DNA of 64,000 bases, from contig CBDHFO010000017.1 in NCBI GenBank assembly GCA_965262645.1, positions 1,252,134 through 1,316,133 of the forward strand. Reading direction: 5' to 3'. A program made the translations under genes and the position numbers. The DNA is from Candidatus Marinacidobacterium sp. (GTDB lineage Bacteria > Acidobacteriota > Vicinamibacteria > Marinacidobacterales > Marinacidobacteraceae). Positions 106 through 55,209 of the stretch are shown one piece after another (position 1 is the first letter of the stretch; every line of letters begins with the position of its first letter). The notes beneath the pieces are model-generated. The model was given only the letters and a program-made list of their open reading frames with translations, ran no database searches and had not been told where the DNA came from.

Positions 106-284
106 TTAGCAGTCCGTGGACCAGGAAGCCCGAGCACCGAAAGCGGTGAGGCACCCGGCTGACAAGGCGCGATTCGGGAGGAATACCGAGTGTATTCCGA
201 CTGAAGCGGAACGCAGAGCGAAGCGGTTCAGCCGGGATGGATCGCCGCTCGAATGCCGGGCTACTTGGTTCACGGGCTGCTCAG
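106..284 (+). repeat. F1 hairpin repeat, copy 1 (diverged), forward orientation
   Basis: TTAGCAGTCCGTGGACCAGGAAGCCCG...GGCTGACAAGGCGCG...GGGAGGAATACCGAGTGTATTCC...CAGCCGGGATGGATCGCC...CGGGCTACTTGGTTCACGGGCTGCTCAG. Collinear with the copy at 934..1117. The arms pair over about 23 positions with three G-T wobbles on the + strand. Confidence 0.85.
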
Positions 285-844
285 GTCAGGGAAAGGAACG
301 AGGCGGAATCGGTCCACTGGCCCGCTTCGAACTTGAAAAGGCGCGACTTGTCGATGAGCAGTTGGCCGTCCTCCGCGAGGCTCACGCCGACGCGTTCCAG
401 CGGGCGGGGCGCCGGGCCCTCGAAGTTGATCCCCGTCGCGTAGAACCCGCTCCCGTGACAGGGACACTTGAACTTGCTCTCGGCCTCGAGCCAGTTCGGC
501 GTACATCCCAAGTGGGTGCAGATGGTGGAGAGGGCGTAGATCTTTTCCTCGTCCCGGACGATCCACACCTGGTAGCGCTCCTTGAAACGGGTATCCACCA
601 CCCCGATCGAGAAGTCAGCCGGAAAGCCCGCCTTGAACTCCGAAGGCGGCTCCGTCAGGACGTTCGGGAACATGAACCGGCCCACGGCGGTGAGCCCGGC
701 GGCCATGGCAGCCGTGAAAACAGCCCAGCCGATGGCCAGAAAAGGAAATTCCCGGCGGGTGACCTTTTTGGCGGCGGCGGAGGCTCGTTTGGGGGCCGGC
801 GCACGGGCGGACCGGGTTGCTGGACTCGCCGGAGGGTCAGGCAT
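281..844 (-). CDS. Rieske [2Fe-2S] protein of a cytochrome bc-type complex
   Basis: CTHLGCTPNW...KCPCHGSGF are the two Rieske cluster-binding boxes. There is an N-terminal hydrophobic anchor. The TGA stop at 283..281 lies in the last bases of F1 copy 1. Confidence 0.85.
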   Translation of the reverse strand: MPDPPASPATRSARAPAPKRASAAAKKVTRREFPFLAIGWAVFTAAMAAGLTAVGRFMFPNVLTEPPSEFKAGFPADFSIGVVDTRFKERYQVWIVRDEEKIYALSTICTHLGCTPNWLEAESKFKCPCHGSGFYATGINFEGPAPRPLERVGVSLAEDGQLLIDKSRLFKFEAGQWTDSASFLSLT

Positions 845-933
845 GGGCTGGATTCAGAGGGGTGTGGGATCGGCGCGGAATTCTAACGGAAGGCTCTCAG
901 AATCGGTCCACGGATTTCCGCGCGTGCCGCCCC

Positions 934-1117
934 AACAGCCTGTGGTGGAACCCGGGTGAGCGCCGAGAGCGGCGAGGCGCCCGGCTGACAAGGCGCGTGA
1001 GGGAGGAATACCTGGTGTATTTCGACCGAAACGAAACGCAGAGCGCCGCGAAGCGACGCGGTGAACAGCCGGGATGCATCGCCGCTCGAACGCCTGGGTT
1101 TCGCCACAGGCTGTTAG
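934..1117 (+). repeat. F1 hairpin repeat, copy 2 (reference copy without core-box insertions), forward orientation
   Basis: AACAGCCTGTGG...CCACAGGCTGTT termini. Hand folding gives a 25-bp outer stem (four G-T wobbles), a 9-bp stem (GAGCGGCGA/TCGCCGCTC), an 8-bp stem (CCCGGCTG/CAGCCGGG) and a roughly 75-nt apical domain containing GAGGGAGGA. Confidence 0.9.
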
Positions 1118-2005
1118 TCACGGACGCGGCCCACCGGGTCGCCGACCTTCGGCAGCGAGAGCCGAGAGCGCGGCCGCCCGGACTCGCAGGTCGGGATCAC
1201 CCGCCGCCACCTCCTCGAGCCGCGCCCGGACGACCGGGGTTTCGAGGACGCCCGCCGCCTGAACCGCACTCAGCCGCGCCAGGACCCTTTCGCCTTCCAG
1301 CATTCCCGGGACGCCCGCCCAGTATTCCGGTTCCATCATCCCGAGGAGCCGCTCCCCCGCAGCCTCGTCTCCGATTCGGGCAAGCGCCACGACGGCGTTC
1401 ACGGAGACATCGAGGATCGGATCCTCGACCGCTCGACTCAAAGCGGCGGCAGCCGCCGGATCACCGATCGCGCCGAGCCCATAAACCGCCATGGTCCGCA
1501 GCCCCGCATCGTCGGCCCGGCTGGCCTCGCCAAGCGCCGAGACCGCGGCTCCCCCACCGATGGAGCCGAGCGCCCAGGCGGCATAGACCCGCACGGTTTC
1601 ATCCGGATCGGCAAGCGCCTCCGTCAAGACGGAAACGGCGGTGGGCTCCGAGAGCGTTCCCAGCGCCAGCGCGAGGTATTGGCGCACCCAGGGATCCGCC
1701 GGGGCTTGCTCCTCTCCAAACGCTCGCACCAGGTCGGGGCCGAGCGCGCCGAATTCTCCGGGCTCGCCATGCTGGATCCGGTTTGCGAGCTCGAACGCCG
1801 CCTGCCTCCTCTCCCGGTGTCCCCCGGCACGGATTCGCTGGAGGTGTTCTTGGGCGGTCGAGTCGTCGGAAACCAGCCACGCGAACCCGAGGAAGATCCC
1901 GACGCCGAGTACCACGACCAGCATGGGGATCACGAAGAACTGGAGCAGGGTCCGGCCGAAAGAGACGTCGCCGGGGTCCGGAGCGGGGGAGGAGTTTTCG
2001 GTCAT
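1118..2005 (-). CDS. HEAT-repeat (PBS-lyase-like) protein with N-terminal TM helix
   Basis: Repeated ...VRxxAAxALGxIGdpaA.. units (HEAT/PBS lyase style) and the hydrophobic segment FFVIPMLVVVLGVGIFLGFAWLV. I trimmed the 487-aa ORF to the ATG at 2005 because upstream codons run through F1 copies 3 and 4. No clear SD, so the start is uncertain. Confidence 0.6.
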   Translation of the reverse strand: MTENSSPAPDPGDVSFGRTLLQFFVIPMLVVVLGVGIFLGFAWLVSDDSTAQEHLQRIRAGGHRERRQAAFELANRIQHGEPGEFGALGPDLVRAFGEEQAPADPWVRQYLALALGTLSEPTAVSVLTEALADPDETVRVYAAWALGSIGGGAAVSALGEASRADDAGLRTMAVYGLGAIGDPAAAAALSRAVEDPILDVSVNAVVALARIGDEAAGERLLGMMEPEYWAGVPGMLEGERVLARLSAVQAAGVLETPVVRARLEEVAAGDPDLRVRAAALSALAAEGRRPGGPRP

Positions 2006-2007
2006 CT

Positions 2008-2193
2008 TTAGCAGCCGGTAGTGGAACCCGGGTGAGCGCCGAGGCTGGCCAGTCTCCCGGTGGGGGCGAGGCGCCCGGCTGACAATGCGCGTGAAGGAGG
2101 AGCCCCCACCCGGAGAACCGGCCCGAGTGTATGTCGACCGAAACGCAACGCAGAACACCAGTTCTCCCGGTGGGGGGGCGCAGCGGAGTGGTG
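2008..2193 (+). repeat. F1 hairpin repeat, copy 3 (right arm truncated, fused head-to-tail to copy 4)
   Basis: TTAGCAGCCGGTAGTGGAACCCGGGTGAGCGCCGAG...GACCGAAACGCAACGCAGAAC...GGTGAACAGCC runs directly into the left terminus of the next copy. Contains three core-box variants. Confidence 0.85.
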
Positions 2194-2431
2194 AACAGCC
2201 TGTGGTGGAACCCGCGTGAGCGCCGAGGCTGGCCAGTCTCCCGGTGGGGGCGAGGCGCTTGGCTGACAAGGCGCGTGAGGGAGGAGCCCCCACCGGGAGA
2301 ACTGGCCCGGGTGTATTCCGACCGAAACGCAACGATGAGCGGCGCGCAGCGACGCGGTCAGCCGGGATGGATCGCCGGCCGAGCCCCCACCGGGAGAACT
2401 GGGCCGCGTGAGTTTCACCACAGGCTGCTAA
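2194..2431 (+). repeat. F1 hairpin repeat, copy 4, forward orientation, with core-box insertions in both arms and the apical loop
   Basis: AACAGCCTGTGGTGGAACCCGCGTGAGCGCCGAG...GAGGGAGGAGCCCCCACCGGGAGAACTGGCCCGG...GAGTTTCACCACAGGCTGCTAA. Confidence 0.9.
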
Positions 2432-2456
2432 CCGGAATGTCGAAAGTGGAGGTTCT

Positions 2457-3461
2457 TCAGAGGCGCTCGAGATCCCGAATCGTACGGAGATCCCGGAAGA
2501 TCCCTTCGAAGGTCGGGATGTCCACAGTCTGGCGTGGATCGGTATAGGCCGTATCGGGATGCGTATGCACGGCGATCGCAAGTCCGGATGCGCCGGCCGC
2601 GAGAGCAGCGCGGGCCAGCGGTCGAACCCGGTCCCGCTCGGCGACTGCGTGCGAGGGGTCCACCAATACCGGCAGATGCGAAGTGCGCCGCACCACCGGC
2701 ACCGCGTGGAGGTCGAGGAGCGTGCGCCGCTGGCCCCCAGCTCGGATTCCCCGTTCGCAAAGGATCACGTCCCGCTTCTGTCGGGCCAGGAGGGATTCCG
2801 CGGCCATCAGCCACTCTTCGACCGTTGCCGACGGACCACGTTCCAGAATGACCGGCTTCGGGAGGCTGGCGGCGATCTCCAACAGGGCTTCGTTCTCCAT
2901 ATGCCGGCCGGCGATCTGGACCAGATCTACGTGCTCGGCGACCCGCTCCGCGGAACGCGGATCCACGATTTCCGAAACGACCGGAAGTCCCGTCTCTTCC
3001 CGGACCCGATCCAGAGTGTGCAGGCCCTCGTCGCCCACACCGCCGAAGTGGTAGGGGCCGATCCGTTCCGACCACAAGCGGGCGCGGAACAGGTCGGCTC
3101 CTGCCGCTCGGACCGCGCGGGCGATGTCCACGGTGCGGGCCTCGGTTTCGATGCTACAGGGTCCCGCAATCACCACCGCGTCGGGGCCGCCGACCGTCAC
3201 GCCGGCAACCTCCACGACGGTGTCCGCCGGATGCACTTCGCGGCTGACCAGCTTGAAGGGCTTGGTGACCGGAATACAGTGCGCGACGCCCGGGAGCCGG
3301 ACCAGGAACGATGGATCCACGGGCCCACGATTCCCGGTGACGCAGATGGCGGTCCGGTCGGCACCCGGAACCCGGAGCGGCGTGAATCCCATGTCGCGAA
3401 TCGCGGTTTCCACGCGCCGGCATTGCTCTTCGGTGGGGACCGCCCCCATGATGACCAACAT
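2457..3461 (-). CDS. 3-deoxy-7-phosphoheptulonate (DAHP) synthase, type I-beta with N-terminal ferredoxin-like regulatory domain
   Basis: AGPCSIE...GAD.FR core and C-terminal DPSH..G motifs typical of KDO8PS-like DAHP synthases. A roughly 80-aa N-terminal extension resembles the Thermotoga-type enzyme. It is the last gene of the trp string. Confidence 0.8.
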   Translation of the reverse strand: MLVIMGAVPTEEQCRRVETAIRDMGFTPLRVPGADRTAICVTGNRGPVDPSFLVRLPGVAHCIPVTKPFKLVSREVHPADTVVEVAGVTVGGPDAVVIAGPCSIETEARTVDIARAVRAAGADLFRARLWSERIGPYHFGGVGDEGLHTLDRVREETGLPVVSEIVDPRSAERVAEHVDLVQIAGRHMENEALLEIAASLPKPVILERGPSATVEEWLMAAESLLARQKRDVILCERGIRAGGQRRTLLDLHAVPVVRRTSHLPVLVDPSHAVAERDRVRPLARAALAAGASGLAIAVHTHPDTAYTDPRQTVDIPTFEGIFRDLRTIRDLERL

Positions 3462-3478
3462 GGTTCTTCCTTTCGCTG

Positions 3479-4276
3479 TTAACCGCTTGCGGTGAGTTGA
3501 AGCACCGCGGAACGGTAACCGGCGATCAGGTCATCCGCGTCCCCCGCCCTTCGGTAAAGGCGTTCGACGGCCCGCGCGAGGTGGCTCCCGACGACCGCGA
3601 TCCGCGCGCCGGCTTCGAAGCCGCGAACGACCTGAGTGCGGTCCGACAGCCCAAAACCGAGACACACGGGAACCTGCACAACTCCGGCGACTTCGGCGAC
3701 CCGGCGAAGGACGCCGGAGAACCCGCCGCGACGAACGCCGGTGACGCCCTGGAAGCCCGCGAGGTAAACGAAACAGGAGTCCCCGGCGAGGCGTTTGAGA
3801 CGCGGCGCCGGGGTGAGGGGCCCCGCCAGTTCAACGTGCCCGAGTCGGGCGCGCCGGCACGCCCGGCGGAGCGGAGCGGCCTCCTCCAGCGGTATATCCG
3901 GGACGAGCAGCGAAGAGGCGCCGGCATCGCACACGGTGTCGGTGAACCGTTCGTATCCGATCCGATGCACCAGATTCCCGTACACCAGCAGGTTGAGCGG
4001 TACTCCCGGACAGGTCTTTGCGATCCGCGCCAGAAGTTCGAACCCGCGGAACGTTGAGGTGCCTCCGGCAAGCGCGCGGCTCGCCGCCGCCTGGATCGCT
4101 GGACCATCGGCGACCGGATCGCTATAGGGAAATCCGATCTCGAGCATCCGGGCACCCGCCGAGACCGCCGTCCGCGCCAGCTCCACACACAGGTCAGGAG
4201 TCGGATCTCCGAGCACCAGAAACGGGGAAACCGCCGGCCCCTCCCCCAGCGTGGTACGGAGCGCGGCGAGGCTCAT
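3479..4276 (-). CDS. trpA: tryptophan synthase alpha chain
   Basis: [20 protein letters not shown] motif. The ATG at 4276 overlaps the trpB stop (ATGA), so the longer ORF start at 4330 is rejected. Confidence 0.9.
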
Positions 4277-6089: not shown

Positions 6090-6109
6090 GACGCGCGCCC
6101 CGGTCTTCC

Positions 6110-8344: not shown

Positions 8345-8594
8345 TTAGCAGGCTGTGGCGAAACTCGGGTGCGATCCATTCGCGGCGCCGAGCGCCGCGG
8401 GGGAGGGGTGTGGGGAGGGGTTTCCCCTCCCCACGAAAGACGATGGCGCGGGCCCCCACCGGGAGAACTGGCGCGGAGCGATTCGCGCCATCACCCCGTG
8501 GGGAAAGCGCCCCGCACGCGCACAAATCGTCGGAATTGCCGCACGTACCGTTCCGGAAATCGTGCGGGGTGCTTTTTCCACGGGCTGTCGGTAG
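8345..8594 (+). repeat. F2 repeat, copy 1 (reference orientation), carries one core box at 8453..8471
   Basis: TTAGCAGGCTGTGGCGAAAC...GGGGAGGGGTTTCCCCTCCCC...CCCCGTGGGGAAAGCGCCCCGCACGCG...GTGCGGGGTGCTTTTTCCACGGGCTGTCGGTA. Collinear in reverse with 54121..54338 and 55207..55425. Confidence 0.8.
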
Positions 8595-8607
8595 GCGAAG
8601 CGGGATC

Positions 8608-14087: not shown

Positions 14088-14292
14088 TTAACAGCCGGTG
14101 GCAAAACCCACGCGGCGTTCGGCGCGGGCTGCATCCCGGCTGAACCACTCCGCTTCGCTGCGTTCTGCGTTGCGTTTCGGTCGGAATACACCCGGGCCAG
14201 TTCTCCCGGTGGGGGCTCCTCCCTCACGCGCCTTGTCAGCCGGGCGCTTCCCGCACCTCGGCGCTCACGGGGGTTTCACCACCGGCTGTTAA
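14088..14292 (-). repeat. F1 hairpin repeat, copy 5, reverse orientation
   Basis: TTAACAGCCGGTGG...GCGTTGCGTTTCGGTCGGAATACACCCGGGCCAGTTCTCCCGGTGGGGGCTCCTCCCTCACGCGCCTTGTCAGCCGGG...CCACCGGCTGTTAA. Perfect 14-bp terminal inverted repeat. Inner arm mismatches are G-T only in the forward sense. Confidence 0.9.
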
Positions 14293-22482: not shown

Positions 22483-23051
22483 CTAGCCCGGATTTCTCAT
22501 ACTCGGGAGCGCTCGCCGAGTCGCAGAAGGCGCCACGCGGACGCTGAACATGGCGCATGGCGCCCATGCCACCAAGCGGAGCGACGCGCAGGCAAGGGAG
22601 CCCCCACCGGGAGAACTGGGCCGACCTCTGGCCAGTTCTCCCGGTGGGGGCCGGTACCGCCCCGCGCAGCGGGGCGAGCGGCGCAGATCTGAGTGAGCGG
22701 AAGCGCGGCCGGGCACCGGAACGCCACCTCCTGGGATGGGGACAGTGCCGAGACCTGAACCATCCCGGTGTGCGGCGATACGCGACTCCGCCCGCCTCCG
22801 GCGGGCTGTGCCGGGCCCCACCGGGAGAACTGCCCGGAGGTCGGCGTTCCCTGACTGGCGGCACCATCTGGATGGTGGCGTACCTGTGAGACCTGCTCTT
22901 TCGCAGCAACGCGCTGGAAGTCGGCGTTCCCTATCCGACACGCCGTCAGGTGGGTCGGGATCCGCGTTTCACATGGAACCGTCTTCCTCGTCAACAGGTT
23001 GCGGTTCCGCGGGGTGCGCTTCGGGCCGTGAGTATGAGAAATGCGGACTAG
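22483..23051. mobile_element. F3: 569-bp non-coding element with about 20-bp terminal inverted repeats (MITE-like), carrying three core boxes
   Basis: Left end CTAGCCCGGATTTCTCATACTC. The right end reverse-complements to CTAGTCCGCATTTCTCATACTC. Internal inverted core-box doublet at 22601..22650. Direct repeat GGA(G/A)GTCGGCGTTCCCT at 22836 and 22916. No credible ORF. It fills the whole gap between two convergent genes. Confidence 0.6.
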
Positions 23052-24863: not shown

Positions 24864-25104
24864 CTAACAGCCTGTGGTGGAACCCGGGTGAGCGCCGAGA
24901 GCGGTGAGGCCCAGTTCTCCCGGTGGGGGTCCGGCTGACAAGGCGCGTGAGGGAGGAATACCGGGTGTATTTCGACCGAAACGCAACGCAGAACGCCAGT
25001 TCTCCCGGTGGGGGGGCGAAGCGGAGTGGTTCAGCCGGGATGCATCGCCGCTCGAGCCCCCACCGGGAGAACTGGGCCGCCTGGGTTTCACCACAGGCTG
25101 TTAA
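24864..25104 (+). repeat. F1 hairpin repeat, copy 6, forward orientation, three core boxes
   Basis: CTAACAGCCTGTGGTGGAACCCGGGTGAGCGCCGAGAGCGG...GAGGGAGGAATACCGGGTGTATTTCGACCGAAACGCAACGCAGAAC...GGGTTTCACCACAGGCTGTTAA. Confidence 0.9.
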
Positions 25105-27117: not shown

Positions 27118-27193
27118 TTACAGCCTGTGGTGGAACCCGCGTGAGCGCCGAGGCTGGCCAGTTCTCCCGGTGGGGGCGAGGCGCCCGGCTGAA
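27118..27193 (+). repeat. F1 repeat, copy 7 (left arm only)
   Basis: TTACAGCCTGTGGTGGAACCCGCGTGAGCGCCGAGGCTGGCCAGTTCTCCCGGTGGGGGCGAGGCGCCCGGCTGA, then homology stops. Confidence 0.8.
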
Positions 27194-27201: not shown

Positions 27202-30018
27202 CTAGAAAGCGTGGCCGATCGTGAAATGCCACTGCCCGCGCGGGGCATCACCGATGTCGCCGAGGCGGATTCCGTAATCGAAACGCAGCGGCCCGAGCGG
27301 AGTGTTCCATCGCAAGCCAGCGCCTACGTTGTGGCCGAGGTCTCCCACCCGAAAGGAGTTCACTTCGCTGTAGACCCCGCCATGATCCGAGAAAACCGCG
27401 CCGCGCAGACTGCTCAGGATGGGGAATCGAACCTCCAGATTGCCGACGATCAGCAGGTTGCCACCGACCGGGTAACCGCTCGGGTCGAGCGGTCCCGCGC
27501 GGTCCAGTTTGTAACCACGCAAGGAGGTCGCTCCACCGGCGAAGAATCGCTCGGTGATCGGTACGAGAGCCGGCTCGTCCGCGCCCAGAGTCCACGCAAG
27601 ACCGAGTCGGCCCGCAACCGCAACGACTACCTGTCCCCCGACCGGGAAAAACAGATATTGCTGTGCGAGGCCCTTCAGGAAGGGCGCTCGGGAGCGGAGA
27701 AGTGCGGACGACCACTCCACATCCAGGATGCCGAAACGGCCCCGACGAGGATCCACCGGGTCATCGCGGGTGTCCGTGACCACGGAAGCCGACACCGCCG
27801 AGAGCCAGAGATTGTCCGCAAAGTTGCGGTCAATCTGATTCGGATTGATCTTCAGATCGAACAGCTCGCTCGTGGTCAGGTCATAGCGGAGAAAAAAACT
27901 TCGCCCGAGGACTCTCCGGGTAACCTGCACGCCGATTCCAGAGCGGATGAAATCCAGGCTCTCCCGGTCCTGCGACTCACGGAACGCGCTCACGAAGATA
28001 GGGACCTCGCCCTCCACGCTCTCCGCCCCCCGGTAGGTCGCCACCATCCGCGTGCCCTTGAGCGAAAACCGGCCGAACAGACTCAAGGTATGGCCCATCC
28101 CGAAGAGATTGTTCCGGGTCCATTCGCCATCTCCCCGGACCTGCTCGCGTTCGCTGTACCCCGCGCCGTAGCCGATGCTGGTGCGCGGGCCCTCCACAAC
28201 CCGGATCAGCACGTTGCGCTCGCTGATCGGTTCCTCGGGCTCGAGGAGATTCACGTCGACGCTGCGAAAGATCCCCATGGAAACGAGGCGCCGGCGCACC
28301 TCGAGGAGATCGCCGCTCCCCAGCGGATCGCCCTCCTCAAAAGGAAGCCGGGACCGGATCACTGAATCCCTCGTGGTATCGAGGCCCGCGACGATGATCC
28401 CTCCGACCGTGAAGTAGTTGCCGGGTCGGATCCGGAAGACGACCTCCGCATCGTGGCTGATCGGATCGACCGGAGCCTCGACCTCCACCACGGCTTCCAG
28501 ATATCCCCGGTTTCGATGAAACGTCTCGAGATCTTCGCGGGCGCCCACGATTTCTTCGGCTACGTAGGGTGTACCCGGCGCAATGGCGGCCACCTCCGAC
28601 AGGTCGGTATCGGTGAATGCGGAACCCCCTTCGAAACGCACCGCCCGCACCGAGGCCGCCGGACCCGGATCAACCCGCACATTGAGATCAAGCGAGAGGC
28701 CTTCGTCGGCCGGGACGGGCGGGCCCGGCTCCAGCGGCACCACCTCAACCCGGAAATAACCCCGCCGCCGCAGCGTTCGGCGCAGGCTGTCGGTCAGGGC
28801 CCTCCACTCTTCTTCGCGGTAGGGACGGCCGGGCCGCAGCGGCAGAAGGGCTTCGGCGACGCTATCCGCCTCCTCCGGAGGGGCGCCTTCCGATGAGACC
28901 GCGCCGACAACGTAACGCGGGCCCGGGTCGGCGGAGAACCGGAAGGTCTGCCGGAGCCCATCCGGACTCTCGACGCTCTCCACCACCACGGTACCGTCCC
29001 GATGTCCTTCCCGACGAAGCTCGGCAAGGAGTTGCTGCCTGGTCGCTTCGATCGCATCCAAAGTGAGCGTGCGCTCCGAAAGGGAATCCACGACGCGCTC
29101 GGCAGCCCCCCCGGAAGCACCGAACCCTTCCACTTCCAGGGTAACCTCGGGGCCGGGCTCCACCGACAGAACCACCCGAACATCTCCCGTGTCGATGGGC
29201 CTCCAATCGAGACTGGCAGTGGCGAAGAGGAAGCCTCGATCCCGAAGTCTTTCCTCGACTTCGGGAAGGCGCGCAGCAACTTCGGCTTCGAGCCAGGGAT
29301 CCTCTGGAGAAACCCGGAGCGCGGGGATGACGTTCCGGCCGAGCTCGTCTTCCACCCCGACGGCCTCGATGAAGGCGACCCGGGCGCGCGCTCCCGAGGT
29401 CACCCGCACCTCCAGGCGCGCATCGCGGCCGTCCGGCACGCTCCGGATGTCCACTTCCGCGGTCAGGTAACCCCGCGAGCGCAACCACCCTTCGGCTGTC
29501 GCTCCTCGAACGGGCAGGTCGTCCGGAACGGATTCGCCGACCTCGAGACCGAGCGTGGCGATCAGCCCCAAATCCTCTCCGGGAGGGGCACCGTCAACGC
29601 TAAACCGGGCGATACTTGGAATGGGGTCGAGTTCAAAGACGAGCCGAAGTCCCCCACCCGACGCCGCCTCGGAACGAATCCGGACGTCGCGGAAGCGTCC
29701 GAGAGCAAACACCTGCTTCACAGATTGCCGGGCGACCAGTGGCCGGAAGCGAGTTCCGGGACGAACCGAGATCAGCCGGGACACCTCTTCGGGTACCGGG
29801 TCGTTGCTCCCATCCGCCCAGCGCACCACCACCGACTCCACGCGCTGTGACAACGGATCTTCCGCCTGACCGGCGCCGGTCTGGCCAGCGGCAAGGCGCC
29901 CGCTCGGGATCGCCGACAAGCCAGCGGCGAGGAGGATCGCTCCCGGACGGCCTAGGCTGCGCCAGGAATCCTTAACGGCCTGTGGACAAAGTCGCACGGC
30001 ATTCAAGCGGCGATGCAT
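27202..30018 (-). CDS. bamA: outer membrane protein assembly factor BamA
   Basis: POTRA-like repeats, then a beta-barrel ending ...GLRWNTPLGPLRFDYGIRLG...WHFTIGHAF (C-terminal aromatic). The N-terminal 96 codons of the ORF run through F1 copy 8. The first usable in-frame start (ATG at 30018) lies inside the repeat, so the start is uncertain. Confidence 0.8.
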   Translation of the reverse strand: MHRRLNAVRLCPQAVKDSWRSLGRPGAILLAAGLSAIPSGRLAAGQTGAGQAEDPLSQRVESVVVRWADGSNDPVPEEVSRLISVRPGTRFRPLVARQSVKQVFALGRFRDVRIRSEAASGGGLRLVFELDPIPSIARFSVDGAPPGEDLGLIATLGLEVGESVPDDLPVRGATAEGWLRSRGYLTAEVDIRSVPDGRDARLEVRVTSGARARVAFIEAVGVEDELGRNVIPALRVSPEDPWLEAEVAARLPEVEERLRDRGFLFATASLDWRPIDTGDVRVVLSVEPGPEVTLEVEGFGASGGAAERVVDSLSERTLTLDAIEATRQQLLAELRREGHRDGTVVVESVESPDGLRQTFRFSADPGPRYVVGAVSSEGAPPEEADSVAEALLPLRPGRPYREEEWRALTDSLRRTLRRRGYFRVEVVPLEPGPPVPADEGLSLDLNVRVDPGPAASVRAVRFEGGSAFTDTDLSEVAAIAPGTPYVAEEIVGAREDLETFHRNRGYLEAVVEVEAPVDPISHDAEVVFRIRPGNYFTVGGIIVAGLDTTRDSVIRSRLPFEEGDPLGSGDLLEVRRRLVSMGIFRSVDVNLLEPEEPISERNVLIRVVEGPRTSIGYGAGYSEREQVRGDGEWTRNNLFGMGHTLSLFGRFSLKGTRMVATYRGAESVEGEVPIFVSAFRESQDRESLDFIRSGIGVQVTRRVLGRSFFLRYDLTTSELFDLKINPNQIDRNFADNLWLSAVSASVVTDTRDDPVDPRRGRFGILDVEWSSALLRSRAPFLKGLAQQYLFFPVGGQVVVAVAGRLGLAWTLGADEPALVPITERFFAGGATSLRGYKLDRAGPLDPSGYPVGGNLLIVGNLEVRFPILSSLRGAVFSDHGGVYSEVNSFRVGDLGHNVGAGLRWNTPLGPLRFDYGIRLGDIGDAPRGQWHFTIGHAF

Positions 30019-30209
30019 CCCGGCTGAAGCGCCCCCCCACCGGGAGAACTGGCGCTTCGCGTCGTTCGTCGTTGCGCTTCGGTCGAAATACACCCGGGCC
30101 AGTTCTCCCGGTGGGGGCTCCTCCCTCACGCGCCTTGTCAGCCGGACCCCCACCGGGACTGGGCCTCCCCGCTCTCGGCGCTCCCCCGGGTTCCACCACA
30201 GGCCGTTAA
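29972..30209 (-). repeat. F1 hairpin repeat, copy 8, reverse orientation (arms from two different subfamilies)
   Basis: TTAACGGCCTGTGGACAAAGTCGCACGG...GGTCGAAATACACCCGGGCCAGTTCTCCCGGTGGGGGCTCCTCCCTCACGCGCCTTGTCAGCCGG...GGGTTCCACCACAGGCCGTTAA. Confidence 0.9.
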
Positions 30210-36376: not shown

Positions 36377-36457
36377 CAGTCCGTGGACAGTGTTCTGGCG
36401 GCCCGGTCCTCCCGCGGGAGGCTTGGCGCTCACACCACTCTACCCACAGGCTGTTAG
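36377..36457 (-). repeat. F1 repeat, short internally deleted copy, reverse orientation
   Basis: CAGTCCGTGGACAGTGTTCTGGCGGCCCGGTCCTCCCGCGGG...GGCGCTCACACCACTCTACCCACAGGCTGTTAG. Resembles the deleted copy at 51153..51276. Confidence 0.6.
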
Positions 36458-38020: not shown

Positions 38021-38125
38021 TCAGCGGCCTGTGGACGAAGTCACGCGGCCCGGTTCGGCGGGCGAACAGCGATGCCCGTTCTCCCAGTGCGGCCCCCGAC
38101 GCTCACGCGATTTGTCCCCAGGATG
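38021..38125 (-). repeat. F1 repeat, decayed copy, reverse orientation
   Basis: TCAGCGGCCTGTGGACGAAGTCACGCGGCCCGGTT...CCCGTTCTCCCAGTGCGGCCCCCGACGCTCACGCGATTTGTCCCCAGG parallels the ...GTGGACA.AGTC.CGCGG / core box / CTCACGCGCCTTGTCAGCC order. Confidence 0.5.
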
Positions 38126-40849: not shown

Positions 40850-40888
40850 CGGGGACACCCCGGGCGCGGGCCGCCCGTTCTCGCCCAT

Positions 40889-40984
40889 CACACGCGCCTT
40901 GTCAGCCGGGCCCCCACCGGGAGAACTGGCCCCACCGGGAGAACTGGCCGGGCTCGGCGCTCACCCGGGTTCCACCACAGGCTG

Positions 40985-40988
<4 letters not shown>
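40889..40988 (-). repeat. F1 repeat, copy 9 (partial; one arm plus two tandem core boxes), reverse orientation
   Basis: CACGCGCCTTGTCAGCCGGGCCCCCACCGGGAGAACTGGCCCCACCGGGAGAACTGGCCGGGCTCGGCGCTCACCCGGGTTCCACCACAGGCTGTTAG. Confidence 0.85.
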
Positions 40989-45788: not shown

Positions 45789-45853
45789 GTCGGTCAAGAA
45801 CACCGGGTTGGGGACGGCGGAGATACCGGCATCCGGACAGTTAGAGTTGCCCG

Positions 45854-45982: not shown

Positions 45983-46022
45983 GGGAACGATCGGCGCGTC
46001 CGGGTTCGCGAAAGGAGAAATC

Positions 46023-47024
46023 ATGTCAACCAGTCAATGGTACGTAGCGGAAGGAGGCCGGACGCTTGGTCCGTTCTCCAGCGCCGATGTCCTGCAGGCT
46101 CTCCAGAGCGGACGCTGGACCGCGGCGACCATGGTTTGCCCTCTCGGGGAAACCTCCTGGAAACCCGCCTCCAGCATCCCCGAACTGCGGGTCGGCATCG
46201 GCGCCGGCTCAGCCCCGCCCCGTCCTCGGGCGCCGCGGCGGATGCACGAAGTGGACTACCGGATCGTCGGCGAGGAAATGCAGTTCGTGGAAGTCGAGCT
46301 CGATCCCAGCGAAGGGGCGATCGCCGAAGCGGGCGCCATGATGTTCATGAGCTCCGGAATCGAGATGCAGACCATCTTCGGCACCGGTGGAGAGAGCGGC
46401 TTCATGGACAAGGTGCTCGGCGCCGGAAAGCGGCTGCTGACCGGCGAGAGCCTCTTCATGACCGAGTTCGTGAACCGCGGCGCCGGAAAGCAGCACGTGG
46501 CCTTCGCTTCACCCTACCCAGGCAAGATCCTGCCGGTGCGACTCGACGAACTCGGGGGCCGGCTTATCGCGCAGAAGGATGCCTTCCTGTGCGGCGCCAA
46601 AGGGGTGTCGATCGGGATCGCCTTTCAGCGGAAGATCGGTACGGCGCTCTTCGGAGGCGAGGGTTTCATCATGCAGTCGCTCGAGGGCGACGGCCTGGCC
46701 TTCCTGCACGCCGGCGGCACGATCATCAAGAAGGAACTGGCGGCCGGCGAGAACCTGCGGGTAGACACCGGGTGTCTGGTCGCGCTCGCCCCTTCGGTGA
46801 ACTACGACATTCAGTCCGTGGGCGGGATCAAGTCCGCCCTCTTCGGCGGAGAGGGATTCTTCTTCGCCAGCCTCACGGGACCGGGGTGGGTCTGGCTGCA
46901 GTCCCTGCCCTTCAGCCGATTGGCCGGCCGGATCCATCAGGCCGCGCCGCAGACAGGCCGCGGTGGCAAGGGAGAGGGTTCGCTCCTCGGCCGGCTCTCC
47001 GGGGTCGGTTGGGACGGCTCTTAG
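46023..47024 (+). CDS. GYF_2 (DUF4339) domain fused to AIM24/TIGR00266-family protein
   Basis: WYVAEGGRTLGPFSSADVLQALQSGRWTAATMVCPLGETSWKPASSIPEL is GYF_2-like. Then Y.I.G...Q.VEV.L.P.E...AE.GAMM.M...I.M.T and GEGFIMQSLEGDG.AFLHAGG are AIM24-like. AGGAGA precedes the ATG. The TAG stop is the TTAG terminus of F1 copy 10. Confidence 0.65.
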   Translation: MSTSQWYVAEGGRTLGPFSSADVLQALQSGRWTAATMVCPLGETSWKPASSIPELRVGIGAGSAPPRPRAPRRMHEVDYRIVGEEMQFVEVELDPSEGAIAEAGAMMFMSSGIEMQTIFGTGGESGFMDKVLGAGKRLLTGESLFMTEFVNRGAGKQHVAFASPYPGKILPVRLDELGGRLIAQKDAFLCGAKGVSIGIAFQRKIGTALFGGEGFIMQSLEGDGLAFLHAGGTIIKKELAAGENLRVDTGCLVALAPSVNYDIQSVGGIKSALFGGEGFFFASLTGPGWVWLQSLPFSRLAGRIHQAAPQTGRGGKGEGSLLGRLSGVGWDGS

Positions 47025-47207
47025 CAGCCTATGGAAAAAGTCACGCGGCATTCGAACGGCGATGCATCCCGGCTGAACCGGGCCGCTTCGCGACCCTCAT
47101 CGTTGCGTTTCGGTCGGAATACACTCGGTATTCCTCCCTCACGCGCCTTGTCAGCCGGGCGCCTCGCCGTTCTCGGTGCTCACGTCACTTTCTCCACAGG
47201 CTGCTAG
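47021..47207 (-). repeat. F1 hairpin repeat, copy 10, reverse orientation, arm-variant subfamily without core boxes
   Basis: TTAGCAGCCTATGGAAAAAGTCACGCGG...GCGTTTCGGTCGGAATACACTCGGTATTCCTCCCTCACGCGCCTTGTCAGCCGGG...CACGTCACTTTCTCCACAGGCTGCTAG. A solo terminus-like fragment follows (CAGCCTGCGGACAA, 47208..47221). Confidence 0.9.
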
Positions 47208-47226
47208 CAGCCTGCGGACAACTGAC

Positions 47227-47829: not shown

Positions 47830-47858
47830 GCCACGCCGGCCACCGCATCGAGGCGCGG

Positions 47859-50987: not shown

Positions 50988-51152
50988 CAGACGATCTCCT
51001 CGGAGAGACAAATCGGAAAACCCAAGAGCATACGGCCTCCGGCGGGGAGTTGCCCCGTACCGGGAGTCCGTCGCGAACGGCGGCCGAGGCCGGCCATCCT
51101 CACCCGACGGTCAGCGCCTGACGCGGCCGGGCTGGCGGCGCTCCACACGCTG

Positions 51153-51276
51153 CCAGCAGCCTGTGGACACAGTCGCGCGGCCCGGTTCTCCCGGTGGGGG
51201 CTCCTCCCTCGCGCGCCTTGTCGGCCGGGCGACTCGCCGGGCTCGGCGCTCACCCGGGTCCACCACCGGCTGCTAG
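51153..51276 (-). repeat. F1 repeat, copy 11, reverse orientation, internally deleted
   Basis: CCAGCAGCCTGTGGACACAGTCGCGCGG|CCCGGTTCTCCCGGTGGGGGCTCCTCCCTCGCGCGCCTTGTCGGCCGGG...CACCCGGGTCCACCACCGGCTGCTAG. Confidence 0.8.
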
Positions 51277-51289
51277 CATTCCTGACCCC

Positions 51290-51559
51290 ATGGCCAACCG
51301 CTCCCGACAGACCTTCCTCAAGCGCCGGAAGGAAAAGGAGCGCGTAGCGCGTCAGCGGGCCAAGGCTGTGCAGCGCCGGGAGCGGTCCATCGAGAAAGAG
51401 CGCGAAATTCCGGTGCGCACGGATGGAGATCCGGATATTCAGGGTTTGGTTGCGGGTCCGCAGGAACCCGTCTGGAAGATGGCCGACGTCCTGACGGACG
51501 ATGAACGGGTCGCGCTCGAAGAAGAAGAAGAAGAAGAAGAGGAACAGGCCGCATCCTGA
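51290..51559 (+). CDS. small highly charged protein (89 aa; basic N-half, poly-Glu C-terminus)
   Basis: MANRSRQTFLKRRKEKERVARQRAKAVQRRERSIEKERE...LEEEEEEEEEQAAS. The poly-E is encoded by (GAA)7-GAG-GAA at 51518..51544. No recognised family. Flanked by F1 copies 11 and 12. Confidence 0.45.
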   Translation: MANRSRQTFLKRRKEKERVARQRAKAVQRRERSIEKEREIPVRTDGDPDIQGLVAGPQEPVWKMADVLTDDERVALEEEEEEEEEQAAS

Positions 51560-51576
51560 GCGATTGGGCGCAGCTC

Positions 51577-51612
51577 CCAATCAGCTGGCCAATCAGCTGG
51601 CCAATCAGCCGG
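51577..51612. repeat. 12-nt tandem repeat x3 (CCAATCAGCTGG)
   Basis: CCAATCAGCTGG CCAATCAGCTGG CCAATCAGCCGG lies 18 nt after the stop of the small charged ORF. Each unit holds a CAGCTG palindrome. Confidence 0.8.
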
Positions 51613-51654
51613 TCTCCCGGAGAACACCCCGGGGGACAAGAAAGCGCTTCGGTG

Positions 51655-51832
51655 AACAGCCGGTGGTGGAACCCGGGTGAGCGCCGAGGCCGGCCAGTTC
51701 TCCCGGTGGGGGCAAGGCCCAGTTCTCCCGGTGGGGCCAGTTCTCCCGGTGGGGGCCCGGCTGACAAGGCGCGTGAGGGAGGAGCCCCCACCGGGAGAAC
51801 TGGGCCGCGTGGGTTTCACCACCGGCTGTTAA
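51655..51832 (+). repeat. F1 repeat, copy 12, forward orientation, apical domain deleted, three tandem core boxes at 51694..51755
   Basis: AACAGCCGGTGGTGGAACCCGGGTGAGCGCCGAGG, then the box three times, then GGCTGACAAGGCGCGTGAGGGAGGAGCCCCCACCGGGAGAACTGGGCCGCGTGGGTTTCACCACCGGCTGTTAA. Confidence 0.85.
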
Positions 51833-51851
51833 AGCCGGTAGCGGGCTACCG

Positions 51852-52553
51852 TCAGGTGCCGCGCGCGCCTCGCCGGCTCCGCGCTTCCGGCTGGTTCCGC
51901 CGTTCGGGGCGGCCGCGCTCGCCGCGGTTCCGGCGCATCTGCGCGAGCCGCTCACGCTGCTCTTCGGTCAGGATGCCGGCCAGCCGGTCCCGATCGGCGC
52001 GTCCCCGGACGACTGCATCGGCCTGGGCCTTCCCGAGAGCCTCTCCGAGCGCCTGAATCTCTTCTGCGGTCCTCTCTGAGTCTCGCGCCGCTTGACGGAA
52101 AGAGCGCCGCGCGTCGGCAATCTCGCGCCGGCTGTCCCGGCGGTTGTCGCCGTTTTCGCGCATCGCCTGTCGCATCTGATCGCGCTGCTCGTCAGTGAGG
52201 TCCAGCGCCGCGGCCGCCCGGCGTCCGAACCAGCGTCCGGCCTGATCCATGCGGGAGTCACGGCCGGAGTCACGGCGGGCGTCACGGCGCCCCTCGCGGC
52301 GCCCGCTGCGGCGGATGCGACGTTCCTGAATCACCGTCCGGCGCTCGAACCGGCGCGCCATCCGCTCGCGGTCCGGCTGAACCGCCGACTCAATTCCGGC
52401 CTCCGCGGACGAAACGGCGGCGACGCGGGCATCCGGCTCCGGGCGGGGTTCCGCCGCTGCCTGTCCGACGGAGGCGAGGCCAAACGGCACGGCCACCAGG
52501 AGAGTCCGGAACGGGCCGAGCCGAACCGGCGTGGGGCGCTCGATCTTCTTCAT
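51852..52553 (-). CDS. Spy/CpxP-family (LTxxQ motif) periplasmic protein
   Basis: Signal-like MKKIERPTPVRLGPFRTLLVAVPFGLASVGQAAA. Two LTxxQ motifs (LDLTDEQRDQM, ILTEEQRERL). Arg/Asp/Glu-rich helical body. Confidence 0.55.
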   Translation of the reverse strand: MKKIERPTPVRLGPFRTLLVAVPFGLASVGQAAAEPRPEPDARVAAVSSAEAGIESAVQPDRERMARRFERRTVIQERRIRRSGRREGRRDARRDSGRDSRMDQAGRWFGRRAAAALDLTDEQRDQMRQAMRENGDNRRDSRREIADARRSFRQAARDSERTAEEIQALGEALGKAQADAVVRGRADRDRLAGILTEEQRERLAQMRRNRGERGRPERRNQPEARSRRGARGT

Positions 52554-52663
52554 GAGAATGGCTCCTTTCCGCGCCTTGGGGCGCGAGACAACGCACTAAA
52601 ACGCAACCGGCGTGCCAAGCTGGCGCGGTGATAAAGTTGGCCGGTTCCGACGAAATATCGGTT

Positions 52664-52737
52664 GGCGGGGTAGCTCAGCCGGTCAGAGCGAAGGACTCAT
52701 AACCCTTAGGTCGGCGGTTCAAGTCCGCCCCCCGCTA
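52664..52737 (+). tRNA. tRNA with CAT anticodon (Met; could be the lysidine-modified Ile2 type)
   Basis: GGCGGGG-TA-GCTC-AGCCGGTC-AGAGC-G-AAGGA-CTCATAA-CCCTT-AGGTC-GGCGG-TTCAAGT-CCGCC-CCCCGCT-A. Cloverleaf with anticodon loop CTCATAA. There is a G1-T72 wobble and one A-C at the loop end of the anticodon stem. No encoded CCA. Confidence 0.8.
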
Positions 52738-52776
52738 CCGACGGTAACCTCCGAGTTGGAGATCCCATTGCTGGAG

Positions 52777-53112
52777 ATGTTTATGGACATGAAGAAAACG
52801 TTCAAGATCAAGGCTCGGCGCGATGTCCAGTGTCCGGAGGTGTATGCGAACTTCTGCGAAGCAACGCATTCGCCGTTCGACCTGACGCTCACTTTCTGTA
52901 GTCTCACGGGCATTCAGCCGGAGGATCTTTCCCATACCGATGCGACCGGGGAGCCTGTCGTGCTCGCGGATCCCAAGACGCGGATCACGCTTCCCTTCCG
53001 GATTGTCCCTGCCCTCATCAAGATGCTCGAAACCCAGTTGCACGCCGTAGAGCAGGCCGAAAACGAGAATGTCCCCCGACCCCAGGGGACCGATTCCTCG
53101 ACGGTTCACTAG
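52777..53112 (+). CDS. DUF3467-like small protein
   Basis: ...VYANFCEATHSPFDLTLTFCSL... resembles the DUF3467 core (from memory). The ORF-track start at 52612 overlaps the tRNA, so it is trimmed to the ATG at 52777 (ATGs at 52783 and 52789 are alternatives). The TAG stop is the terminus of an F2 fragment. Confidence 0.55.
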   Translation: MFMDMKKTFKIKARRDVQCPEVYANFCEATHSPFDLTLTFCSLTGIQPEDLSHTDATGEPVVLADPKTRITLPFRIVPALIKMLETQLHAVEQAENENVPRPQGTDSSTVH

Positions 53113-53200
53113 CAGCCCGTGGCAAAGCACCCCTTCGCACGCCCCACTCCGGCGGCGCTCCGCGCCGCCGGCGGACACGGGCCGACTTTCGCCCCCCGCT
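53110..53200 (-). repeat. F2-like terminal fragment
   Basis: TAGCAGCCCGTGGCAAAGCACCCCTTCGCACGCC matches the CCCGTGGGGAAAGCACCCCG end of F2 copies at 54121 and 55207. The inner boundary is unclear. Confidence 0.45.
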
Positions 53201-53229
53201 GCCAAGGCCGTCGCTGACTCGTTGCTGAG

Positions 53230-53685
53230 ATGCCGGTAACTGGCCGTCCCCGCTTGCGCGCCGAACCGCCGAAGCCCCGGCGCACGGAACGGGACGGGGC
53301 TTTGGACCGGATTCAGACCGCGCGAGCCTCGGTGGCCAGCAGGTCGCTCTGGTTGAAGCGCGGGAGCGTCGCCGTGGTGGCGGGCGCCATGGGCGTCGGC
53401 GCTCTGCAGGGATGGCTGTTGCTGCGCCTGGCAGCTCTGCCGATCGCGCTGTGGTTTTGGTGGCTCGACGCCTCGCTCACCCGCACCGACGAGCGACTGG
53501 AACGCCTCTACGACGACGTGTTCCAGCGGACCGCGGAACCGCCCCTGATGGGAGACGAGACGGGGGCAGCCGCCCGGATGACGGAGCCGCCCGGTTCGCT
53601 CCGGCAGGCCCTGCTCTCAGGACCCGGAACCAGTCTCCACTGGATGATGACCGGAGTCGCCGCCCTCTTCAACATCCTGGTCTGA
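53230..53685 (+). CDS. hypothetical membrane protein
   Basis: Hydrophobic stretches SVAVVAGAMGVGALQGWLLLRLAALPIALWFWWL and HWMMTGVAALFNILV. No known motif. The 3' end overlaps the convergent Trm112-like ORF by 69 nt. Confidence 0.4.
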   Translation: MPVTGRPRLRAEPPKPRRTERDGALDRIQTARASVASRSLWLKRGSVAVVAGAMGVGALQGWLLLRLAALPIALWFWWLDASLTRTDERLERLYDDVFQRTAEPPLMGDETGAAARMTEPPGSLRQALLSGPGTSLHWMMTGVAALFNILV

Positions 53686-53955
53686 CTCTGCGGGGACGTC
53701 CCCGAGCGCGGAAATCGGGATCCGGTCCTCGATCAGCATGATCGGAATCCCGTTCCGGACGGGGTAGAGAAACTTCCCGTCCTCCCGAACCAAGCCGCCG
53801 TCCACGGCCTCGGGCTTCGCAGTGCCGGCCGGCACCTCAAGACTTCCGTCGCGGATGGCGCGGTTCACGGATTCCACCAGCGCCGCAGGCGCCACCCTTA
53901 CCGGTTGGCGCGTCTCCGGGCAGCAGAGGATTTCCAGGAGTTCGGGATGGATCAT
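53617..53955 (-). CDS. Trm112/YcaR (UPF0434)-like protein with long C-terminal tail
   Basis: MIHPELLEILCCPETRQPV...LVREDGKFLYPVRNGIPIMLIEDRIPI is typical of the Trm112p-like family. An acidic tail follows. Confidence 0.6.
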   Translation of the reverse strand: MIHPELLEILCCPETRQPVRVAPAALVESVNRAIRDGSLEVPAGTAKPEAVDGGLVREDGKFLYPVRNGIPIMLIEDRIPISALGDVPAESDQDVEEGGDSGHHPVETGSGS

Positions 53956-53989
53956 CGGGTCACGGAGCCCAGCGCGGCGAGCAGGGGGC

Positions 53990-54077
53990 TGGTGCCGGAG
54001 GAGGGACTCGAACCCTCATGGCCCCAGGGACCGCGGGATTTTGAGTCCCGTGCGTCTACCAATTCCGCCACTCCGGC
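53990..54077 (-). tRNA. tRNA-Leu (anticodon CAA), CCA encoded
   Basis: Reverse complement reads GCCGGAG-TG-GCGG-AATTGGTAG-ACGC-A-CGGGA-CTCAAAA-TCCCG-(long variable arm CGGTCCCTGGGGCCATG)-AGGGT... TTCGAGT ...CTCCGGC-A-CCA. Class II tRNA cloverleaf. Confidence 0.92.
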
Positions 54078-54120
54078 TATCCCCCGAAGTCACCGCCGGA
54101 CCGGCGCTCGGAAGGACAGT

Positions 54121-54338
54121 CTACCCACGGCCCGTGGGGAAAGCACCCCGGATCGCGTCCATGACCGGAAACGCGCCAAGTCTCAGATCTTTGGTTGCGG
54201 GTGCTTTCCCCCACACAATGGCGGCGCAAATCGTTCCGCGATGCACCCCACCGTCTTGGGGAAATCCCTCCCCACACGTCGCCTGCGGCGCTGCACGCCG
54301 CAATTTGACGCTGCGCGACTTGCGCCACCGGCTGTTGA
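54121..54338 (-). repeat. F2 repeat, copy 2, reverse orientation
   Basis: CTACCCACGGCCCGTGGGGAAAGCACCCCGGATCGCG...GCGGGTGCTTTCCCCCACA...GGGGAAATCCCTCCCCACAC...TTGCGCCACCGGCTGTTGA. Collinear with the reverse complement of 8345..8594. Confidence 0.75.
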
Positions 54339-54484
54339 CGATCCCTCCTCCCAAGCGTCCTCGACCCTGAAGGAGACGTCACGAGGGCCGTCATTCGTAC
54401 CTCTCACCCGGCGGCGGGCAACGGCGAGGTTCCGAAAGCCAACCCCGGCAAGTGGACAAAGTCACCAAATCCCAAGAGTGCCAG

Positions 54485-54514
54485 TAGTCAGGGTCTTTCC
54501 GAGTGTGGTATCAT
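54485..54514 (+). promoter_or_regulatory. candidate extended -10 sigma-70 promoter for carD
   Basis: TAGTCA, an 18-nt spacer, then TGGTATCAT (TGn plus TATCAT), about 48 nt upstream of the carD start in an unusually AT-rich patch. Sequence match only. Confidence 0.35.
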
Positions 54515-54561
54515 CACTGGTTCGCGTACTAAAAATGCTATCCGGGAGGCGTCGTTGAGTA

Positions 54562-55209
54562 TTGATGCGGTTTGAAGTGGGAGACAAGGTGATCTACCCG
54601 AATCAGGGGATCAGCGTCGTCGAGAGCATTGAACTCACCAACGGGGCGGCGGGGCCGAGCTTCTATCGTCTGCGCCTGCTGGCGAAGTCCACACTGGTCA
54701 TGGTGCCGGTGGAAAAGGTTGATGAAGTCGGGCTGCGCCGGATCATGACCGAAGGTGATGTCGAGGAGGTTCTCGACGTCCTCGAAAACGGCGCGGTGGA
54801 TGAACAGGTCAACTGGAAGACCCGTTACAAGGACAACTCCGACCGCATGAAGGGCGGTTCTCCGGTGGAGGTCGCTGGCGTCCTCAAAGGTCTCTTCTAC
54901 CTGAGCGAGCGCAAGACCCTTTCCTTCCGCGAGAAGCGGATGCTCGACCGGGCGCACCAGCTCACCGTGACCGAGGTCGCCGAAGTCGCCAACGAGACCC
55001 TCGAGGCGGTGGAACGCAAGGTCGTGGAGGCGCTGCGCCGGAGCCGGAACGGAATGGTTGGCCACGAGGCCCGAGAGGGAGAGCGCGAAGGAAGCGCCGC
55101 CGGCGCCGCCACCAGCGTAGTGCCCCTGCGACCGCCCAAGCGGCGGCGGGTGGCCAAGGGCTTGGACAGCGGGCGGCGTCCCGTCTCCATCTCGATAAAC
55201 CGCTACTAG
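54562..55209 (+). CDS. carD: CarD/CdnL-family transcriptional regulator
   Basis: F.VGDKVIYPNQGISVVESIE.......FYRLRLL...T.MVPV is the CarD_TRCF RNAP-interacting domain, followed by a helical C-terminal domain. The TAG stop is the terminus of F2 copy 3. Confidence 0.8.
   Translation: MMRFEVGDKVIYPNQGISVVESIELTNGAAGPSFYRLRLLAKSTLVMVPVEKVDEVGLRRIMTEGDVEEVLDVLENGAVDEQVNWKTRYKDNSDRMKGGSPVEVAGVLKGLFYLSERKTLSFREKRMLDRAHQLTVTEVAEVANETLEAVERKVVEALRRSRNGMVGHEAREGEREGSAAGAATSVVPLRPPKRRRVAKGLDSGRRPVSISINRY

Follow-up and report, generated by a model that had tools for sequence, protein, structure and literature searches.

Why do the ends of a short repeat coincide so often with stop codons in the 64,000-nucleotide stretch of Candidatus Marinacidobacterium sp. 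contig CBDHFO010000017.1 (hereafter the window), and are the repeats placed there for a function or by their mode of insertion? The window has a GC content of 66% and about 47 genes, of which 30 end in TGA, 9 in TAG and 8 in TAA, and it carries about 19 copies (full, truncated, tandem or decayed) of a repeat with the ends CAGCCKGTGG...CCACMGGCTG. At one mismatch or fewer, the window yields 46 matches to CAGCCKGTGG and shuffled sequences yield 11.9 ± 3.4. The repeat comes in two forms, F1 of about 180 nt and F2 of about 240 nt, which have in common only the first ~18 nt of their ends. We consider it very probable (about 0.85) that F1 and F2 are miniature transposable elements with inverted repeats (MITEs) of uncultured, mostly sponge-associated Vicinamibacteria, and that their association with stop codons arises incidentally from a YTAR insertion target (Y, pyrimidine; R, purine) and base composition. 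The family is new as such, but it is of a known kind.

A preliminary description of the window placed eight stop codons inside repeat termini. Seven of these are TAA or TAG codons that directly abut an end, five of them at canonical F1 ends (CAGCCKGTGG/CCACMGGCTG), namely 14289-14291, 25101-25103, 36454-36456 and 40985-40987 (TAA) and 47022-47024 (TAG), and two at diverged F2-type ends, 53110-53112 and 55207-55209 (both TAG). The eighth, that of the Rieske protein gene, is a weak case, as its TGA (281-283) lies inside CTCA, out of register, and is not the TAR of a YTAR flank. The HEAT gene stop was correctly described as abutting a terminus, its TGA (1118-1120) following directly on the flanking TTAG. 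Pfam confirms the proteins in question as Rieske, HEAT, sigma-70, carboxyltransferase, HslU-type AAA, GYF plus AIM24, DUF3467 and CarD proteins. The termini were also said always to carry a tetranucleotide with a stop codon on both strands, which overstates the case: YTAR is present at about 22 of 32 ends in the window and at 196 of 312 exact ends (63%) in the wider sample of 875 kb introduced below. The non-YTAR flanks of the window are CCAA (932), TGAA (2192 and 51653), TCAG (38021), CCAG (51153 and 56332), TCGG (8588) and CTTA (27117). The presence of a stop on either strand of YTAR is a trivial consequence of the tetranucleotide itself.

The wider sample was assembled with the internal F1 core as query and one genome per species, the core being used instead of the ends in order to keep the end sequences unbiased. 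The search returned more than 102 stretches, all from metagenome-assembled genomes (MAGs) of Vicinamibacteria/Acidobacteriota, including "Candidatus Marinacidobacterium" and sponge bins. Including the window, the total comes to 875 kb with 719 predicted genes; it contains 415 ends, from about 12 MAGs, and 148 paired copies, and the counts below refer to this sample unless the window is named. When we tabulated the distance from each terminus to the nearest stop, 54 of the 415 ends lay directly at a predicted stop (offset 0), whereas each of the other offsets out to ±30 nt held five or fewer. By this measure the coincidence with stops far exceeds random placement, but it stays within what is predicted from a preference for YTAR targets. 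In the window, about 7 of 16 copies are associated with a stop, a richer proportion than in the wider sample, and this excess is probably why the pattern drew attention there.

The four bases that precede an exact end are, in order, Y in 288, T in 225, A in 280 and R in 293 of 312 cases. YTAR sites lying clear of repeats and of element flanks were scored as occupied or unoccupied. At gene stops, 39 sites were occupied and 75 unoccupied (34%), in other intergenic DNA 93 were occupied and 185 unoccupied (33%), and in coding DNA (719 kb) 6 were occupied and 103 unoccupied (5.5%). The comparison of stops with other intergenic YTARs gives an odds ratio of 1.03 (Fisher p = 0.91); without the window, the occupied and unoccupied sites number 34 and 70 at stops versus 88 and 162 in other intergenic DNA. 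Splitting the intergenic sites by tandem, divergent or convergent gene arrangement yielded occupancies of 24-39%, with no context standing out. TAR stops were occupied in 48 of 129 cases when they follow a pyrimidine and in 2 of 130 when they follow a purine; a YTAR target calls for this difference, and a function at the end of translation would not.

Per kb, YTAR is about 15-fold scarcer in coding than in intergenic DNA of these 66% GC genomes, and since stops and other intergenic sites are equally occupied, target preference together with this scarcity explains the pattern. Among the oriented F1 copies, 39 of 143 (27%) abut a stop, against 29% expected. By reconstruction, TTAA is the site used most, with about 50% occupied, and CTAG and CTAA/TTAG sites are 18-19% occupied. 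The simple explanation first offered for the window, in which a TA or YTAR target preference with duplication funnels insertions onto TAA and TAG stops, is borne out by the equal occupancy, by the need for a pyrimidine and by the empty sites described next. The alternative offered with it, selection for a position at the end of translation, is not needed, as there is no enrichment beyond target scarcity, an outcome that had been named beforehand as refuting and that here counts against the functional reading.

Three loci syntenic with the window at 82-96% identity allow filled and empty sites to be compared. OZ252286 (locus L087) lacks window positions 56336-56683 and has a single CTAG there, the site reading CGCTACTAGAATC; it also lacks 51657-51828, where it reads CCGGGAAAGCC. 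OZ244986 (L068) is without the F2 at 8349-8587, and its orthologous site reads ACATTCAGTAGGCG. Four empty sites have a single YTAR-like tetranucleotide, whereas filled sites are flanked by one at each end, and the lengths of the empty sites fit a 2- or 4-bp duplication. Filled and empty sites together show the target-site duplication that marks a MITE; a YTAR target with 4-bp or TA duplication is also a mark of the IS5 family.

The preliminary description supposed that the insertions supply the stop codons of their neighbours and may have redefined C-termini, and proposed that orthologues without the insertion be examined for the ancestral stop. These orthologues, from other strains and species, have the stop at the same position and a single CTAG or other YTAR at empty sites, and they contradict the supposition for GYF-AIM24, CarD and HslU, which end at the same codon without the element or with another one. 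The GYF-AIM24 stop (CTAG) is empty in six strain contigs with an identical protein, where the order is ctcCTAG, a 10-nt solo end and the NUDIX start. Three contigs have one F1 at this stop, the window and one further contig have a different F1 (~80% identical), and OY821641 has an F2; three different elements have thus inserted at this stop in independent events. The carD stop is followed by an F2 in the window and by an F1 on the same CTAG in OZ252286. Five strains share the same truncated copy at the hslU stop, and hslU of OY821641 (L101) has TGA at the same codon and no repeat. The stop of the 152-aa gene is always occupied in strains with an identical protein, but the form varies: a 77-nt mini element, a 197-nt copy, a 215-nt copy bearing an additional module, or two copies in tandem with a common TTAA. 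Since empty sites have their stop at the same codon, the stop predates the insertion, and wherever a comparison was available the C-terminus had stayed in place. The differences between strains also show that the elements have moved recently.

We propose that a transposase acting in trans would recognise the ends shared by F1 and F2 (CAGCCKGTGG..RAA) and insert the element at Y-TA-R, duplicating either TA or the whole YTAR. Insertions within genes would be purged; as YTAR is also rare in coding DNA, the usable sites would be intergenic YTARs and Y-TAA or Y-TAG stops. Stops account for about 29% of this pool and take about 29% of the insertions. An element that enters a stop would leave TA in place with a purine behind it once more, so that neither the stop nor the C-terminus changes, and a hairpin of about -100 kcal/mol would then start right past the stop.

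The anatomy of the elements is that of MITEs. The 148 paired copies measure 100-450 nt, with a mode at 160-180 nt and extra size classes in +20-nt steps, and they lie below the limit of about 500 bp and carry no transposase gene. Terminal inverted repeats are present, and the whole element pairs as a single hairpin; copy number is high (415 ends in 875 kb), and presence or absence varies among strains at two loci. The ends of F1 can be told apart, the A end being CAGCCKGTGGTGGAACCCGGGTGAGCGCCGAG and the B end CAGCCKGTGGCGAAACCC...GCATCCCGGCTGAAC, with the conserved core GGCTGACAAGGCGCGTGAGGGAGG between them. Folded as RNA, F1 forms one rod-like hairpin that takes in the flanking TA; the copy at 936-1113 gave -115.9 kcal/mol (z = -10.8) and a second copy -98.7 kcal/mol (z = -9.9). 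Tandem insertions also occur, in which neighbouring copies in some cases share one tetranucleotide.

A 19-nt module (CCAGTTCTCCCGGTGGGGG) is nested within the repeats. It is found 285 times in the 875 kb, 277 of them within repeat DNA, with 0-5 modules per F1 copy at a few fixed positions and in either orientation (at 24911-24929, 24996-25014 and 25056-25074 within one F1). The number of modules varies among strains with identical flanking proteins, and deletion between two modules explains the 77-nt mini F1. The nested module itself remains unexplained by the simple model given above.

IS5/IS427-like and IS630-like enzymes are candidates for the transposase, and IS630 itself prefers CTAG. F1 and F2 share with IS5, IS711 and the element MITEPsy1 the YTAR target, the length class of the duplication and insertion beside earlier copies. 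IS5 targets YTAR with duplication of the full tetranucleotide (PMC5009759), IS711, which belongs to the IS427 group, also targets YTAR, duplicates its central TA and favours palindromic repeats as insertion sites (PMC2266754), and the 100-nt, IS5-like MITEPsy1 of Pseudomonas syringae duplicates CTAG or YTAA (PMC3189936). However, the 875 kb yielded no transposase of the IS5 family bounded by CAGCCKGTGG ends, the ends of F1 and F2 do not match the printed ends of MITEPsy1 (PMC3189936), and F1 differs in its near full-length hairpin, its nested 19-nt module and its host, an uncultured acidobacterial lineage. The IS630/Tc1-mariner MITEs offer a second likeness: RUP of Streptococcus pneumoniae is small, has inverted ends, inserts at TA with duplication and is thought to be mobilised in trans by IS630-Spn1 (PMC2229807). 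In contrast, F1 and F2 strongly require Y before and R after TA and have an extra base between TA and CAG. A TA duplication is compatible with our data, and no IS630-type gene was seen in the 875 kb. A third comparison is with the repetitive extragenic palindromic (REP) elements, which are 20-40 nt long, make no target duplication and are tied to RAYT transposases. The REP elements of E. coli resemble F1 in placing a stable extragenic hairpin a few bases from a stop, which would fit the orientation bias described below, but F1 is not a 20-40-nt palindrome of the REP/BIME type: it measures about 180 nt and has inverted ends and duplicated flanks, and its empty sites are exact and carry YTAR.

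Several points weigh against the MITE reading given above. Neither a plain TA nor a plain 4-bp direct duplication predicts the base found at the junction next to TA, and the 30:10 orientation bias of F1 at stops is not predicted by pure target availability. Gene prediction in the 875-kb sample was made with a home-made codon model, diverged F2 ends entered the occupancy count as unoccupied sites, and the loci were chosen for containing F1, not at random. No autonomous partner, that is, long end pairs enclosing a transposase, was found in the 875 kb, and a search of the same sample for dispersed multi-copy proteins gave tandem paralogues only. Ten genes lying between relaxed end pairs proved to be host genes (Pfam: RbfA, TruB, BamB-like, beta-lactamase-fold, TPR and others).

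The junction base deserves attention, as it is the basis for a different account of how the elements move. For the paired copies of L001-L102 and of the window, informative pairs have identical bases between TA and CAGCC at their two ends in 30 cases and different ones in 8. It matches the flank palindromically, being A at TTAA (19:1) and G at CTAG (22:1), and is either base, at about 1:1, at mixed sites. The correlation holds within each genome, and population structure was rejected as its cause, both classes being present in every genome; nor is the base inherited with the internal sequence of the copy (p = 0.11). Flanks carried over from the donor as 4-nt cohesive ends would predict this pattern, a speculative proposal under which the MITEs would move by a piggyBac-like cut-and-paste, with YTAR overhangs annealing to the target and seamless excision; selection may separately act on the strand of the hairpin present in the mRNA right after the stop. 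The exactness of the empty sites and the heavy use of TTAA would also agree with it. However, no such transposase was seen in the 875 kb, more asymmetric junctions would be predicted at mixed sites than are observed, the empty sites could be ancestral and not excisions, and gene conversion between copies could blur lineage signals. We regard this account as unlikely.

The orientation of F1 bears on whether selection keeps the elements at stops, where the hairpin might affect ribosome release, the stability of the mRNA 3′ end or termination, much as in a REP-like role. The very stable hairpin starts at the TA of the stop, and F1 copies at stops have their B end toward the gene in 30 of 40 unrelated genes (30:10, p = 0.002), a count that includes the stop-abutting copies at 14288, 25100 and 47025 of the window; for copies further downstream of a gene the figures are 49:37. 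The A-to-B strand is G-rich and folds as RNA about 18 kcal/mol more stably in 143 of 143 copies, so with the B end toward the gene the mRNA usually carries the weaker hairpin. Liang, Rudd and Deutscher reportedly found in 2015 that REP elements near E. coli stops hinder terminating ribosomes, and the bias may reflect what so stable a structure costs when it sits immediately at a stop. Such a bias speaks for the loss of one orientation by purging, not for recruitment to stops. Targeting by replication strand was set aside, the link between orientation and local GC skew being weak (odds ratio 0.40, p = 0.017).

Transcription of the elements was also considered in this context. Sponge metatranscriptome contigs contain F1, and one of them joins GYF-AIM24 to NUDIX across the empty site, which indicates that both genes share a transcript when the site lacks an element; RNA contigs cannot locate transcript ends, because all copies collapse into few contigs. 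Neither a sigma-70-type promoter consensus nor an intrinsic-terminator consensus was present in two F1 copies and their flanks, and the GC-rich hairpin of these copies is not joined to the T run of an intrinsic terminator. While the orientation bias is what speaks for selection beyond target availability, stops are occupied no more than other intergenic YTARs, stops after A or G are almost never occupied, the site can be vacant, filled or filled in another way among strains whose proteins are identical, and the elements have no U-tract. We therefore hold selection at stops to be quite improbable; as MITEs inserting at YTAR, the elements would be neutral at the RNA level. That YTAR belongs to the element, without duplication, so that insertions upstream of old stops made new ones and shortened the proteins, is very improbable: an in-frame read-in would end at YTAR, and 14 of 650 genes do run 6-50 nt into repeat DNA, but the empty sites keep exactly one YTAR at a length that fits a 2- or 4-bp duplication, GYF-AIM24, carD and hslU stop at the same codon with or without the element, and stops lie at offset 0 from the ends and not inside the elements.

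The family offers a worked example of how a target motif and genome composition can mimic a functional association with stop codons without selection for it. In these abundant sponge symbionts the elements extend spurious open reading frames (ORFs), place hairpins of about -100 kcal/mol between genes that are transcribed together and can be used as strain markers. The orientation bias, the junction symmetry and the 19-nt module are modest leads into the chemistry of transposition and the cost of structure at translation stops. Short-read contigs of 0.9-1.3 kb with the HEAT gene (window 1118-2005; L128-L131) end at F1 on both sides, which shows that the family fragments short-read assemblies of these genomes; a look-up of the HEAT protein returned only identical architectures or contigs broken at repeats.

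Repeat copies and related features in the window (nt, nucleotides; strand left empty where none is assigned).
Positions	Strand	Feature	Flanks and neighbouring genes
110-279	+	Diverged F1, A end left	TTAG (106-109) and CTCA (280-283); right flank degenerate, shared in part with the minus-strand Rieske TGA stop (281-283)
936-1113	+	F1, 178 nt	CCAA and TTAG (1114-1117); HEAT TGA stop (1118-1120, minus strand) adjoins the right flank
2012-2427	+	Composite: truncated F1 (2012-2195) and full F1 with 19-nt modules (2196-2427)	TTAG and CTAA; 6 nt upstream of HEAT start codon (2003-2005)
8349-8587	+	F2, 239 nt	TTAG and TCGG
14092-14288	-	F1, B end left	TTAA on both sides; right TTA (14289-14291) is the TAA stop of the 152-aa gene
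22597-22650		Two inverted 19-nt modules (CCAGTTCTCCCGGTGGGGG) forming a hairpin, outside F1	
24868-25100	+	F1 with three modules	CTAA and TTAA; TTA 25101-25103 is the sigma-70 TAA stop; B end toward gene
27121-27192	+	Truncated F1, A end only	Left CTTA; BamA-like TAG stop (27202-27204) ~10 nt past the truncation, not within the element end
29976-30205	-	F1 with modules	TTAA on both sides; upstream of BamA-like gene, not at a stop
36377-36453		Short element, 77 nt, ends CAGTCCGTGG...CCCACAGGCTG	Right TTAG (36454-36457), its TTA being the carboxyltransferase TAA stop
38025-38110	+	Decayed element, B-type end CGGCCTGTGGACGAAGTC	Left TCAG; adjoins carboxyltransferase start codon
40891-40984	-	Truncated F1 (core to A end, two modules)	Right TTAG (40985-40988), its TTA being the hslU TAA stop
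47025-47203	-	F1, B end at gene	Left TTAG (47021-47024), including the GYF-AIM24 TAG stop; right CTAG
47208-47217	+	Solo 10-nt end CAGCCTGCGG	Followed by ACAAC
51157-51272	-	Short F1, 116 nt	CCAG and CTAG; in front of it a decayed copy whose right end is at 51152
51657-51828	+	F1 with several modules	TGAA and TTAA; between convergent genes
53113-53225	+	Degenerate F2-like segment, starts CAGCCCGTGGCAAAGCACCCC; F2 likeness limited to a short internal stretch	Preceded by CTAG (53109-53112), including the DUF3467 TAG stop
54130-54334		F2-like remnant, resembles 55210-55343, ends CCACCGGCTG	Followed by TTGA; beside tRNA 53993-54077
55210-55421	+	F2-type element, starts CGCCCGGGGGGAAGCACCCC, ends GCACGCTG	CTAG (55206-55209, including the carD TAG stop) and CTAG (55422-55425)
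56336-56679	-	Full F1 (56336-56550) and partial F1 (56555-56679)	Shared TTAA at 56551-56554; outer flanks CCAG and CTAG

Searches for known counterparts of the repeats gave little. Rfam at gathering thresholds returned two tRNAs from the window and no family matching the repeats, and F1 had one 31-nt chance match in a plasmid collection. A literature search for "Marinacidobacterium" gave no papers, and one with the end sequence gave only enterovirus primer papers, TTAAAACAGCCTGTGGG being the enterovirus 5′ end, a coincidence. In the exact-protein look-up, the carboxyltransferase and the protein encoded at 55563-56264 had no record.

Two of the copies have further peculiarities at their edges. 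The start codon of the gene downstream of hslU (40886-40891) sits right at the inner edge where the F1 at 40891-40984 is truncated, and the truncation may have been shaped by the 5′ end of that gene. The solo end at 47208-47217, directly past the GYF-AIM24 stop site, is present in all strains, including those in which the site is empty; in L111-L120 (position 2203-2212) it varies as CAGCCTGTGG, CAGCCGGTGG, CTGCCTGCGG and CCGCCTGTGG between identical flanks.

The tRNA genes of the window lie at 52664-52737 (+) and 53993-54077 (-). The longest DUF3467 ORF overlaps the first of them, which places its real start probably near 52756. In several relatives, tandem pairs of paralogous genes, with proteins 76-91% identical, adjoin F1 copies (L006 3796-7130, L013 636-3842, L027 2659-5796 and L082 4092-6555).

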